Source of the DNA: an uncultured Gammaproteobacteria bacterium
Lineage (GTDB): Bacteria > Patescibacteriota > Microgenomatia > 2-02-FULL-39-11
Length of the DNA stretch: 64,000 nt
Direction: 5' to 3'
NCBI GenBank assembly: GCA_964354025.1
Contig: CAYGXQ010000005.1
Location: forward strand, 3,366-67,365
The notes beneath the pieces are model-generated. The model searched no databases. It had not been told where the DNA came from and was given only the letters and a program-made list of their open reading frames with translations. Positions 48,265-51,677 of this stretch are shown in pieces; positions within the stretch are counted from its first letter, which is position 1; each line of letters begins with the position of its first letter. The translations under genes and the position numbers were made by a program.

Positions 48265-49344
48265 TCAATTATAAAGGAGTTTTGATCCGGCGAAGGAGAC
48301 GATGATTTTTTTATAGAGAAGATAAAAGCCGATGACGCCGACGCAAAAAGGCAACAGGGCATAGGTCCAGAAACAGAGGATTTGCAGTATTATATAAATT
48401 GAAAGTGTTGATACAATCAAATTTCCCGTCAGAGTCGGTATAACCGTTTCTTTCCGCGCGTTTTTAATCAGTAAGGCCATCAGATAAATCTGTACTAAAA
48501 CTACCAGCGGCCACCACCAGCTGTTTTTGCAATAAGCCCCGCCTGATAGTATCGGCCCGGTATCGCCTCCCAAAACTTCTCCTGTGGGAGTCGGTGTTTC
48601 CTCATCTTCTTGATTGATGTCTATATCTGTCTGATTAATAACTGTAGTGATGATAACCTGGCTGGTGGCTGTACCGCTCCCTCCCAACGGCGTCGGCGTG
48701 GGCGTCTGTGAGGGCCCAGGACCGGGCGTTTCCGTCGGCCCGGGAACTTCGGTGGGAGTAACCGTCGGTGTGGGCGAAAGCACCGGTTCTACTCCACAGG
48801 TAAAAGAGAGATCAGTATCAAAAACGATCTTTGTTCCCTGATACTCGTTGCCGGTTTCCGGGGCAAAAGTGATCAGCCAGTTGATATTTTTTACCGCAGA
48901 AGCGGGAATGACCGTCAGGTAAAAACGGCCTGCGTCAAAGAAGTTGCGAAGCGTTCTGGAAGATACAGCCTTTCCCCCATCGGACTGTCCGTAAAGATCG
49001 CTTGAACCGTCATTTAAGACAGTATAAACCATTTTCGCCAAACCTCCCGGATCATCAGCATTTTTGGCTTCCAGATAAAGGTTGCAGTCATCACCGGAAT
49101 TATTATTGGCAATTGAAATTTGCCGGCTGATGGTCTGCCCGGGCAGCCACTTGCTGTCGTTAAAGACGATGCCGCCAACGGGAGCAAGCGTACAGGAACC
49201 GCCGCTGGCGCAAGTAACCGTCAGATCCGCGGCGAAAACAGAAGAAGAAATTATAAATGATAAATTATAAATTATAAATGAAATTACAAATGTCAAAATG
49301 CCAAATTTGTAATTTGTAATTTGTAATTTATCATTCATACGCAA
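48265..49344 (-). CDS. Secreted Thr/Pro-linker protein with C-terminal membrane anchor; third gene of the TasA-SipW operon
   Basis: Signal peptide shares ..FVISFIIYNLSFII with toxin 1; TPTPT linker; two C-terminal TM helices preceded by VIPTLTGN; 14 nt overlap with the SipW-like gene. Confidence 0.6.
   Translation of the reverse strand: MRMNDKLQITNYKFGILTFVISFIIYNLSFIISSSVFAADLTVTCASGGSCTLAPVGGIVFNDSKWLPGQTISRQISIANNNSGDDCNLYLEAKNADDPGGLAKMVYTVLNDGSSDLYGQSDGGKAVSSRTLRNFFDAGRFYLTVIPASAVKNINWLITFAPETGNEYQGTKIVFDTDLSFTCGVEPVLSPTPTVTPTEVPGPTETPGPGPSQTPTPTPLGGSGTATSQVIITTVINQTDIDINQEDEETPTPTGEVLGGDTGPILSGGAYCKNSWWWPLVVLVQIYLMALLIKNARKETVIPTLTGNLIVSTLSIYIILQILCFWTYALLPFCVGVIGFYLLYKKIIVSFAGSKLLYN
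49245..49332. repeat. Heptamer-periodic tract over the start and signal peptide of 48265-49344
   Basis: ataaatg ataaatt ataaatt ataaatg aaattac aaatgtc ... aatttgt aatttgt aatttgt aatttat. Confidence 0.7.
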
Positions 49345-50392
49345 TCTCTTTTTCTATAATCTTATCCGCTTCTCCGGTTTGGGATAAGGTCACTTTCAGA
49401 TGGATCTTGCCGATATCCGTATCATAGGTACAGTGACCCTCTGAAGTACAGCTTCCCAAAGTCAAATTGTCACGGCTGATCGTATCTTCATGAGCCGGAT
49501 TGGCGATGTCTGCCGGGCCGATCCCTCTTGGTAAATCTCCCGCCTGATAAGTAATCACATAATTTAAATTGTCGAAGCCGCTCACTCCCTTGGCTTCAAA
49601 AGCGACGGATTGTTTGTCTTCTGAAAGGGAAAAATTCACTGCTGGACTGCTCCAGACGCCGGCGGAGATGGATAAACTGGCAGTTTCGCTGTCATAAAAT
49701 CCTGAAGAACCGCCGGCAATTGACTGTCTGGCCCAGGTAATAATCTCCAGATTCTTACTTTTTACCAGAAATAAAGAAATTAAGACTATTAAAACTGCGG
49801 CTTTGACGCTCAATTTTACAAAACCATTGTAGATGGAAGCATTTTTTCTTTTTTCCTTGTACTTACGCCATAATCCGGCGATTTCCTTTTTGATGTTTAG
49901 CAATTCGCCGTAAACAATCAGGGTGGCCGGGATGACGATCAGGACAATCAAGCCGGTCTGCGTCTTGGCAAAGGCCACCGGATAACCCAAAAAGGGAATA
50001 GAGAAAACCGCTTTCCCCAATATTTGTTTAGGCAAAACCGGTTCCGGATCGACAGTTCTATTGGCGTCGCCTTTGACCTGATAAGAAATCCTGCCCGGCT
50101 GGTCCAAAACCGAAACGATCCGGTGGGAAATGATGGTTTTACTCTTTGACGGCTCCCCCGCCGGATCAGTAGAAAATGTGATCACTTCGTTTTCTCTGTA
50201 TTTCTCCATCGGAATAACAGCCACCAAAGAACCGGTTTTGATCGCCGGCTCCATAGAGCCTGACTGGACCACAAACAGTTTGAGATTGCCGGAAATCCGC
50301 ATCAGGGAAAAAGAAGCGGCAGCCGAGATAACCACCAGCCCGAAAATGGCCAGGTAATAAAAAAGGTTTTTGATATAGTTAAGTTTGGTCAT
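49331..50392 (-). CDS. sipW: Signal peptidase I of the SipW (archaeal/eukaryotic) type, with a long C-terminal extension
   Basis: N-terminal TM followed by the catalytic-Ser motif VVQSGSMEPAIKTGSLV; 353 aa. Confidence 0.7.
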   Translation of the reverse strand: MTKLNYIKNLFYYLAIFGLVVISAAASFSLMRISGNLKLFVVQSGSMEPAIKTGSLVAVIPMEKYRENEVITFSTDPAGEPSKSKTIISHRIVSVLDQPGRISYQVKGDANRTVDPEPVLPKQILGKAVFSIPFLGYPVAFAKTQTGLIVLIVIPATLIVYGELLNIKKEIAGLWRKYKEKRKNASIYNGFVKLSVKAAVLIVLISLFLVKSKNLEIITWARQSIAGGSSGFYDSETASLSISAGVWSSPAVNFSLSEDKQSVAFEAKGVSGFDNLNYVITYQAGDLPRGIGPADIANPAHEDTISRDNLTLGSCTSEGHCTYDTDIGKIHLKVTLSQTGEADKIIEKEIAYE

Positions 50393-50690
50393 GTTGCATA
50401 GCTATCCGCCTTCGCTCAGGTTCGCCTCGAGGCTTACAGCCACGCAGTCGAAACTTCGCTTCGGCGGATAACTCTCCTTAACGCCATTCAATAATCTTAA
50501 GATTGACTGGCGAAGGAGAGTAATAACTGGCTTTATGGGAAGCCGGAACTTGTATACTTCGATAACTCAGTTTTACGAATGAGTTTCTCAGTATTTACCT
50601 ATCTAATCCGCTTTGCTGCACTTTTCGTTTGCAAACCGGAGTAAGATAGGTATACTTGGCTCCGACTCCCGAAAAACCAGTTAAAATGTC
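50393..50690 (-). other. Highly structured ~300 nt intergenic region between the TasA-like and SipW-like genes; candidate cis-regulatory RNA or attenuator
   Basis: Multiple inverted repeats seen: tatccgcc..ggcggata; actctcctt..aaggagagt; tacctatct..agataggta. Confidence 0.4.
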
Positions 50691-51677
50691 TTAAAAATTC
50701 ACCTGATTTCCTTCCCACAGATTCTTCACGTTGTCACCCCAAAGATCTGCACCGTATGTGAGGTTGACAAAAACACCGGATACGCCGGCGAAATCATGAG
50801 AACCGCTTAAGGTCAAAGAACCGTCACTTGCAGATACTCCGCTGACTAAATCAGCCGGATTGTTGCTGCCTGTCCGGTAAGTTAACCTGTAAGATGCGCT
50901 TGGCTCAAGACCGTAAGCCGTCATTGAATATGTTTTGCCTGAATTATCGTATTTGAAGAATCCAAGCTTGCCGTCAACGACTGAATACCAGTTCGGGCCG
51001 CCGTCTTTGTTATCCAAAACGACTCCATTGACAGTAACCGGTCCCGGACCGTCTTTCTGCTCGGCATATAGATTGACGCTGTACGTCATCGTGTCTCCCT
51101 GATACTGGTTGCCGGCGTCAGTCTTCAAACGGTAGGTTTGTTTGATAGCCAAAGTCTTTCCAGGCTCAACTGCTCCCAACGGAACCCAAAGTGATCCCAC
51201 GTCTGCCAAAGTTTTACCCCAGCTTTCCGGGATAACTGCGACTGCAGAACCGTCTTGTGGTGTAACCGTCATGCTGTAAACAACTACCTTTGAAAGGTCG
51301 TTGTCTTCGGCTGACATACCAGAACAGGTTTTGTCTGTGTTGTTCCATGTTCCAACTTCAGCAGCACATTCCGGCTCGGACTTAGCTCCGGTTGCAAACT
51401 GGTAACCTCCGATCATTTTTCGAAGCACTACCGGATTTTCACCGTCGTTTTTGACCACAAAAGTCATTTCCTGTACCACTCCCGGTTTGAAGTCTGTCCA
51501 TTGAGAGGTATAAGTCTTTGTCCAAGGATTTTCGTTATCGACAGAAATGTCGATGGTGCCTGCGGAGATGGTATTGCCGGCACTTGTCTCAGTATCTGAG
51601 AAATATGCCCTGGTAGCCATGACTCCGGAAGCGACGACACCGCCGATAAGCACTAAACTTAAAAGAATTTTTTTCAT
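50691..51677 (-). CDS. TasA/camelysin-family protein with a SipW-cognate signal
   Basis: N-terminal signal followed by ATRAYFSDTETSAGNTISAGTIDISV, matching the conserved AxFxDxExS..N.F.AGTLDL motif. Confidence 0.75.
   Translation of the reverse strand: MKKILLSLVLIGGVVASGVMATRAYFSDTETSAGNTISAGTIDISVDNENPWTKTYTSQWTDFKPGVVQEMTFVVKNDGENPVVLRKMIGGYQFATGAKSEPECAAEVGTWNNTDKTCSGMSAEDNDLSKVVVYSMTVTPQDGSAVAVIPESWGKTLADVGSLWVPLGAVEPGKTLAIKQTYRLKTDAGNQYQGDTMTYSVNLYAEQKDGPGPVTVNGVVLDNKDGGPNWYSVVDGKLGFFKYDNSGKTYSMTAYGLEPSASYRLTYRTGSNNPADLVSGVSASDGSLTLSGSHDFAGVSGVFVNLTYGADLWGDNVKNLWEGNQVNF

Follow-up and report, generated by a model that had tools for sequence, protein, structure and literature searches.

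A TasA-class, SipW-dependent operon with a fused signal peptidase in a CPR/Patescibacteria bacterium

Three consecutive open reading frames (ORFs) on the minus strand of a 64,000-nt stretch of contig CAYGXQ010000005.1 (the window, whose positions are used for all coordinates) make up one transcription unit, from about 51.8 kb to 48.16 kb, of an uncultured, ultra-small bacterium of the candidate phyla radiation (CPR/Patescibacteria), and they appear to encode a TasA-class, SipW-dependent surface-fibre system. The general system has four parts, a TasA/camelysin-family secreted protein (T), a SipW-type signal peptidase (S), a module protein (M) and a membrane-anchored TasA-like protein (A); only three genes are found in the window because S and M are fused. 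We put at about 0.9 the probability that the locus is a SipW-dependent TasA-class operon in which gene 2 is an S-M fusion and gene 3 encodes the TasA-like anchored component. All findings on the locus are computational. An earlier interpretation by a model from the letters alone (the sequence-only reading) had already proposed a dedicated module of the TasA/SipW type here, and the proposal is supported by TasA-family and S26B-type matches that pass curated cutoffs, at scores far above what chance would give; the coordinates of the ORFs are confirmed as well. The features of the operon are the following, with their basis in brackets.

50691..51677, minus strand: gene 1 (T), TasA/camelysin-family secreted protein, 328 aa (PF12389, TIGR04088)
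51606..51677, minus strand: signal peptide of gene 1, residues 1-24, with predicted SipW cleavage ATRA↓YFSD (sequence, motif alignment to TasA)
51543..51605, minus strand: mature N terminus of gene 1, YFSDTETSAGNTISAGTIDIS (TIGR04088 match; CPR T-signal consensus)
50393..50690, minus strand: 298-nt spacer with three stem-loop domains (folding against shuffles)
49331..50392, minus strand: gene 2 (S-M), SipW-type signal peptidase fused to the module protein, 353 aa
49847..50392, minus strand: peptidase part of gene 2, residues 1-182, with transmembrane helix 1 (TM1), catalytic domain and TM2 (TIGR02228, alignment, PDB fold matches)
49757..49828, minus strand: TM3 of gene 2, residues 189-212, after a basic loop (AlphaFold2 (AF2) helix; alignment)
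49649..49702, minus strand: relic SipW-type cleavage/donor-like motif of gene 2, GFYDSETASLSISAGVWS, residues 231-248 (homologous position; low predicted local distance difference test (pLDDT) score)
49334..49645, minus strand: C-terminal immunoglobulin-like (Ig-like) module of gene 2, residues 250-353, signature Y..TY ... LGTCS..G.C (structure model, homologs)
48265..49338, minus strand: gene 3 (A), membrane-anchored TasA-like protein, 357 aa from the ATG at 49338
49231..49338, minus strand: classical signal peptide of gene 3, residues 1-36, VFA↓ADL (AXA) (CPR SipW-signal profile, 0/47)
48778..49230, minus strand: probable TasA-like jelly-roll domain of gene 3, residues 37-187, without a donor-strand segment (hhalign, PDB fold matches)
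48523..48777, minus strand: Thr/Pro-rich disordered linker of gene 3, residues 188-272 (pLDDT below 50)
48271..48516, minus strand: C-terminal membrane anchor of gene 3, three predicted helices (structure model)
48152..48270, minus strand: 3' flank with hairpins, including a terminator-like stem at 48160-48175 (repeat families D8 and D10)

Gene 1 is the presumed major fibre subunit. It matches the Pfam model Peptidase_M73 (PF12389) with 36.4 bits (gathering threshold 22.5, E 6e-9), and the match runs from residue 21 to 210 and takes in profile positions 23-194 of 196; this TasA-like domain is followed by an extra beta-rich C-terminal region of about 115 aa. The start of the protein reads MKKILLSLVLIGGVVASGVMATRA↓YFSDTETSAGNTISAGTIDIS, where the arrow marks the predicted cleavage, and residues 21-45 are ATRAYFSDTETSAGNTISAGTIDIS. 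The SipW-cognate N terminus that had been noticed here by eye is confirmed by TIGR04088 (cognate_SipW; 27.8 bits, cutoff 19), and the motif lies exactly at a site that follows the (-3,-1) rule, ATRA↓YF. We aligned this site by motif to TasA A27↓A28-F29 (numbering of PMC9674648). It has Phe at P2', a residue reported to make the TasA site LepB-incompatible and SipW-dependent (PMC10269814), and the mature N terminus that would be exposed is a candidate donor strand, by analogy with residues 28-38 of TasA (PMC9674648). The protein is not matched by NF046066 (TasA orthologs proper), and reaches 17.2 bits with TIGR04090 (BsaA), below the cutoff of 60. PDB sequence searches with gene 1, with the N-domain profile of gene 3 and with the module profile gave nothing meaningful.

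The second gene had been described as an archaeal-type signal peptidase, and its first half is just that. It matches TIGR02228 (sigpep_I_arch; E 7e-26, 90.9 bits against a cutoff of 51.85), and its SGSMEP motif occupies residues 44-49 (nt 50246-50263). In an alignment S46 (in SGSMEP), H90, D109 and D115 are invariant among 12 relatives; from what is known of SipW and SEC11 we take these to be the catalytic residues, of Ser-His(-Asp) type and not a Ser-Lys dyad. In fold the AlphaFold model is nearer to SEC11 than to LepB, its top PDB matches being human SEC11A/C (7p2p_A and 7p2q_A, E ~1e-5), proteins of the endoplasmic reticulum (ER) type. With the Bacillus SipW equivalog model NF046067 the score is 117.1 bits, below 190, and going by these matches the protein is best called SipW-like, being no ortholog by the NCBI criterion. 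All of its named relatives and the best 80 genomic loci belong to Patescibacteria/CPR metagenome-assembled genomes, mainly of Microgenomates classes, WWE3 and Parcubacteria. A contig lookup by the exact sequence of the SipW ORF returned nothing.

The long C-terminal extension of gene 2 had also been pointed out. The total of 353 aa is correct, and the extension is a fused substrate gene, no mere tail of the peptidase. In the AF2 model (mean pLDDT 77.8) TM1, the catalytic domain and TM2 are followed by a basic loop, a third helix, a low-confidence segment and a nine-stranded beta domain. These extra 170 aa are a fused M protein, in which a signal-anchor helix is followed by a relic SipW-type motif and then by the Ig-like module. 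Free-standing M homologs carry an N-terminal signal peptide at the position of TM3, which is the former h-region of the signal peptide of M, and at the position of the relic motif relatives show AxFSDxE..GN..SaG.W, with F232 invariant. The junction is seamless in topology: the cytoplasmic C terminus of a two-helix SipW continues into an N-in signal anchor, and the module would for this reason lie on the active-site side. The structure prediction that the sequence-only reading had suggested for the extension yields, at residues 250-353, an Ig-like module of nine strands (pLDDT ~90) with FN3/Ig-like fold matches.

The module is far more widespread than this fusion. An exhaustive profile search with the extension of gene 2 retrieved 837 cluster representatives (E<=1e-3), and the best 145 of them served to define architecture classes: the module stands alone in 38 (110-180 aa, each protein having an N-terminal signal peptide of its own), is joined to a peptidase in about 37, and forms the end of a larger protein in about 70, nearly all of which have a SipW-signal start (...GTTNSYFSDTE.S.GN.FSAG...). 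Curated hidden Markov models (HMMs) run on 129 representatives identified sigpep_I_arch in 31, TIGR04088 in 13, TasA/Peptidase_M73 in 6 and a lamin-tail domain (LTD) in 52; no Pfam or NCBIfam model covers the module in any of these 129. It thus appears, as far as profile searches can tell, to be an uncatalogued family that occurs free-standing, at the C terminus of SipW-signal proteins, or fused to SipW. Among the homologs of gene 2 most are about 200 aa long and the extension is present in a minority.

Since TIGR04088 detected neither the extension of the window gene 2 nor any of 12 free-standing module proteins, a lineage-specific profile (the CPR signal profile) was built from 55 T-protein N termini, leaving out window gene 1. 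With this profile 8 of the 12 long SipWs show a site inside the chain, within residues ~180-240 (E 8e-10 to 8e-5), and 108 plain SipWs and 47 A-family proteins show none. The 19 fused forms in a tree of 207 peptidase domains cannot be explained with fewer than 13 state changes, which makes fusion or fission a recurrent event. A second kind of peptidase-substrate fusion was met in five further loci (L023, L028, L045, L046 and L062), where the partner of S is a TasA-like domain, attached directly, and the Ig-like module is lacking.

The start of gene 3 is most likely the ATG at 49338 and not the listed TTG at 49344, because the identical public entry (P0121, for which a sequence lookup returned a 2.7-kb Logan contig) is 357 aa long. 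Its overlap with the S-M stop is accordingly 8 nt; the 14 nt given earlier hold just for the TTG. Pfam and NCBIfam have no direct match to it, and only three close homologs turned up among 5.8 billion proteins, each directly downstream of a SipW-type peptidase. Several profile and structure comparisons relate its N-terminal domain to gene 1. An HMM of this domain finds homologs in about 50 CPR loci and weakly matches canonical SipW-signal TasA-like proteins, including gene 1 (E 4.7e-4); jackhmmer started from gene 1 recovers 67 of the 68 matches of the A profile; and hhalign aligns the A family (47 sequences) with the T family (56) over 122 columns with a probability of 98.6% (E 5.9e-16), from the PLF..N..PG strand to the GNEYQG..FD strand. 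When the model of gene 3 was compared with the whole PDB, the top three matches were to Bacillus subtilis TasA (5OF1/5OF2; E 2-6e-4, probability 1.0). Gene 3 is thus probably a divergent TasA-like domain behind a Sec/AXA signal, with no counterpart of the YFSD... segment.

The rest of gene 3 was in part foreseen correctly by the sequence-only reading. The Thr/Pro-rich linker is there (in the homolog P0124 an fn3 domain takes its place); the two C-terminal helices become three predicted ones (residues 275-293, 299-324 and 330-356), with the basic loops inside as the positive-inside rule demands; and VIPTLTGN, placed ahead of the helices, is actually in the basic loop between the first and the second and has no demonstrable role in the system. 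At least one C-terminal hydrophobic helix is present in 44 of 48 A-family proteins. The heptamer tract at the start of the gene, (AAATTAC)x3 at 49309-49329, is also real and falls within codons 4-10, without a demonstrable role. It is one of four such AT-rich tracts (AAATTAC/AAATTAT, 3-4 units), all on the minus strand, the others being at 9941-9968, 41915-41935 and 60179-60206. Two of them are translated in frame as KLQITN(Y/D)KLQI, in the arginyl-tRNA synthetase gene (ArgRS, 58842-60917), between the N-terminal and catalytic domains, and in ORF 9274-10554, and the tracts look like a small dispersed insertion sequence tolerated by coding regions. A separate observation on gene 3 is that the 84 nt coding for its signal peptide share 85% identity with the 5' end of a cassette at 41169-41900.

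A census of 84 CPR loci, made with purpose-built HMMs, shows a conserved operon. There are about 50 syntenic relatives of the window locus, and the consensus order is T (with the cognate signal), S, M, A; the counts are lower bounds, with many loci ending at contig ends. T lies upstream of S in at least 59 loci and A downstream of S in at least 48 and upstream in none, in agreement with the suggestion that gene 3 is the anchored secreted protein of the module. M is a separate gene between S and A in at least 18 loci and is fused to S in at least 6. The gene before A ends at a median of -4 nt from its start, which indicates translational coupling. The genomic context had been thought unusual, and it is in fact a common one among CPR bacteria.

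Another recurrent feature of these loci is a structured spacer between T and S. In the window it has a minimum free energy of -126 kcal/mol against -77 +/- 5 for shuffles (z -9.6), and the antisense strand folds more weakly, by 18 kcal/mol (z -6.1). Neither of the two Rfam search modes gave a credible family and nhmmer found no sequence relatives. The T-to-S spacers of the CPR loci, typically ~68 nt long, have a median z of -5.2, with 75% at or below -3.3, as against -2.4 and 38% for control same-strand spacers in the same loci. The structured character of the spacer is kept across loci although its sequence differs. It could act as an intra-operon attenuator or as an mRNA- or 3'-stabilising element.

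A way to bring these components together is to read them through the biology of TasA. A TasA subunit cannot extend its own strand before being complemented, and TapA, with a similar N terminus and a complete Ig fold, has been proposed as the provider of the first strand and initiator (PMC9674648, PMC10151520). By analogy, SipW would remove the signal peptide of T and expose the YFSD... N terminus, which would insert as donor strand into the next subunit and give a chaperone-free donor-strand polymer, as in TasA. T, with both donor strand and acceptor groove, would form the polymer. M, with a donor-like N terminus and a complete Ig-like fold (the architecture of TapA), would supply the first strand as a donor-only initiator or distal cap. 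A, with the groove, no donor strand and a membrane anchor, would accept the last strand and tether the proximal end of the fibre. The M-S fusion would put the initiator where the N termini of T arise, self-cleavage releasing M in most fused relatives, and the hairpin spacer would set the stoichiometry, so that far more T is made than S-M or A. Adhesion or matrix formation is a plausible role of the fibre in CPR cells attached to a host. To this complete scheme, whose polarity and contacts are drawn from the comparison, we would give slightly less than even odds. The wider proposal, that CPR bacteria have a widespread four-component TasA-class pilus with both ends genetically specified (a donor-only initiator or tip protein M with the uncatalogued module, repeatedly fused to the signal peptidase and self-released by it, and an anchored acceptor-only A), is for the moment tentative, and we lean against it.

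A number of results weigh against this picture and have to be set beside it. The structure model of gene 3 is of moderate quality (domain pLDDT 70-84), with TM scores to TasA of 0.40-0.44. The module is not matched by the TapA model TIGR04087 (the best relative, P0083, reaches 14 bits against 80) and TapA is outside the top 50 fold matches of the module, so that the resemblance is architectural only. None of the 12 free-standing M proteins reaches the TIGR04088 cutoff. One locus, L003, has the operon without a detectable module; there an LTD protein between S and A bears the SipW signal and no module, and this Rosetta-stone test was negative. The difference between T-to-S and control spacers (Mann-Whitney p 6e-8) was obtained with control shuffles that preserve dinucleotide content only approximately. 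Finally, the junction motif of the window, GFYDSETASLSISAGVW, is degenerate, at -1.2 bits with the CPR signal profile, and lies ~18 residues past TM3, after a 14-aa insertion; self-cleavage of window gene 2 is uncertain for these two reasons.

The last point supports a different view of the S-M protein, in which it stays uncleaved, the peptidase permanently keeping the module outside the cytoplasm as an accessory domain (one that docks, for example, substrates, A or the cell wall) and the FYDSE segment being an evolutionary relic. The closest relative, P0002, is likewise degenerate at the site, and B. subtilis SipW is reported (Terra and co-workers, 2012) to have a second, non-catalytic function in its C-terminal tail. 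On the other hand, a strong cognate signal is kept at the junction in the 8 of 12 long SipWs mentioned above, and even in the window the junction GGSS↓GF retains small residues at -1 and -3 and Phe at +2. We consider a permanently attached module possible, if rather improbable, and it is compatible with the fibre model, in which it would change only the step of release from the fusion.

It is also conceivable that no fibre is made at all, and that the locus is a SipW-dependent secretion module whose T, M and A products are surface, S-layer-associated or matrix proteins or a camelysin-type protease, A being just another membrane protein. The Pfam family is named "camelysin metallo-endopeptidase", many module proteins bear adhesin-type domains (LTD, Ig or fn3), and polymerisation of the fibre is here an inference only. 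The gene 1 protein has a single His and no HExxH, which makes the "metalloprotease" label unlikely for it; conservation in T is highest in precisely the stretch that serves as donor strand in TasA (PMC9674648); and a strictly kept T-S-M-A order, translational coupling and the existence of a TasA-like paralog without the donor segment are hard to explain under this alternative. We regard it as unlikely and retain the donor-strand fibre as the better account.

Anchoring of gene 3 by sortase through its LPXTG-like motif (VIPTLTG), and/or switching by heptamer slippage, is very improbable: IPTLTG is present and (AAATTAC)x3 sits just past the start codon, but the motif lies in the basic loop between helices and occurs in 6 of 47 family members, there is no TLxTC sortase signature in the window, and the tract, which counts just three units, is unchanged in a second assembly (L001) and is met again at three unrelated places, in two of them in frame within other ORFs. 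That an assembly error or frameshift has joined two genes into the long SipW ORF, a reading prompted by the 18 loci in which S and M are neighbouring but separate genes, is hardly credible given that the frame is continuous and the junction topologically seamless, the same fusion ORF is found in the independent Logan assembly (L001), a relative at 43% identity has the same architecture, and 31 of the 129 module representatives scanned are peptidase fusions.

The surroundings of the operon are those of an ordinary CPR chromosome, with an RHS-repeat giant protein, a penicillin-binding protein (PBP) transglycosylase, ArgRS and tRNA-Ser. Upstream of gene 1 a terminator-like hairpin (51736-51756, minus strand; an 8-bp stem and then a T-run) stands between a promoter-like site (51792-51821) and the gene 1 start, and is either the terminator of an upstream toxin-antitoxin-like gene pair or an element of the 5' untranslated region of the operon. 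At the other end, the hairpins behind gene 3 belong to repeat families whose members are found beside the RHS-fragment genes too. The latter are three tandem minus-strand genes for "RHS repeat-associated core" fragments (41169-41900, 43539-44789 and 45522-46853; repeats D1, D2, D6, D8 and D10), two of which match TIGR03696 with 71-75 bits; they have signal-like N termini, differing C-terminal domains and repeated flanking hairpins, and their arrangement resembles an orphan array of toxin cassettes, situated downstream of the genes for giant RHS proteins. The plus strand carries two paralogous ABC permease genes of the MacB/FtsX type (37994-39202 and 46917-48146; phmmer E 5e-139), 8 kb apart, one of which is convergent with gene 3. 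We considered the permease as part of the system and discarded it, adjacency to the operon being common only to the window and its closest relative L002.

Further away, the 3' end (52857-52943) of a gene for a 111-aa membrane protein (52608-52943) is repeated at 55021-55107 and 55710-55796 with 78-85% identity, each time with the same stop and beside small toxin-antitoxin-like genes; the copies may be gene remnants or recombination scars. An element of ~40 nt rich in TAGCGTTTAGC occurs in direct and inverted copies at 9209-9260, 37029-37119, 37778-37819 and 37958-37995. ORF 37112-37783 has copies of it on both sides, two copies pair with 100% complementarity along 34 nt, and another is 28 kb away; the element may be a small mobile or regulatory repeat. 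ORF 1954-8778 (2274 aa) has RHS repeats, and the minus-strand ORFs 17624-23743 (2039 aa) and 25663-28296 (877 aa) have no Pfam match at E<=1e-4.

TasA-type fibres are known from Bacillus biofilms and, lately, as archaeal pili, and their initiation, termination and attachment to the cell are unsettled. The locus and its ~50 syntenic relatives amount to a genetically explicit proposal for these steps: a donor-only protein, a major subunit and an acceptor-only anchored paralog. The locus also shows a signal peptidase recurrently fused to its own substrate, and brings out a large module (the 837 cluster representatives) missing from Pfam and NCBIfam. The operon is a conserved surface-structure operon in CPR/Patescibacteria, organisms that depend on attachment to host cells. 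To our knowledge, CPR surface appendages besides type IV pili are essentially uncharacterised. If the model is true, A would be the first defined anchor or terminator of any TasA-type donor-strand fibre, and the fibre a candidate host-attachment organelle of CPR episymbionts. Searches of the literature on SipW, TasA or camelysin with CPR lineages found no description of the operon, the fusion, the module or the anchor; the sole prior mention that came to light is a remark, one sentence long, which calls homologs of PF12389 "readily identifiable" among Patescibacteria (PMC9245690).

Among known systems, chaperone-usher pili (Fim/Pap) share with the proposed fibre a polymer with specialised ends, one without a donor strand and one that ends polymerisation. 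In papBA a stem-loop after the major pilin gene adjusts stoichiometry, as we suppose for the CPR spacer. The proteins are nevertheless unrelated, the CPR system has no chaperone, usher or outer membrane, and its acceptor-only subunit is membrane-anchored, whereas FimH is at the tip. In Clostridium perfringens, sipW adjoins bsaA, a gene for a polymer-forming protein of the TasA family (BsaA polymer, TIGR04090); the BsaA model is the one that gene 1 matches at 17.2 bits instead of 60, and we know of no anchor or module genes in that system. The archaeal AbpA/AbpB and other TasA-like filaments built by donor-strand complementation share with the CPR system, as it is predicted here, jelly-roll TasA-like subunits, a TapA-like accessory protein proposed as initiator and operon membrane proteins proposed as anchors (PMC9245690). 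These loci differ in that they are without a dedicated peptidase and their membrane proteins are not TasA-like (PMC9245690), while for the CPR system membership of PF12389 can be recognised from the sequence.

Of all known systems the nearest is the tapA-sipW-tasA operon of B. subtilis. It differs in gene order (tapA-sipW-tasA against T-S-M-A), and the CPR M module has no detectable homology to TapA and is, in the window, fused to the peptidase. A strong hairpin follows the major-subunit gene in the CPR system; the window genes fall short of the SipW equivalog (117 vs 190 bits) and of the TasA/BsaA models; and Bacillus has no counterpart of the fourth CPR component, the TasA-like paralog that bears a Sec/AXA signal and a transmembrane anchor at its C terminus and is without the donor segment. 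In both, an ER/archaeal-type signal peptidase gene lies beside its substrates and overlaps a neighbour, the major subunit belongs to PF12389 and has an AxF.D... mature N terminus, and a minor protein combines a donor-like N terminus with a complete Ig-type fold.

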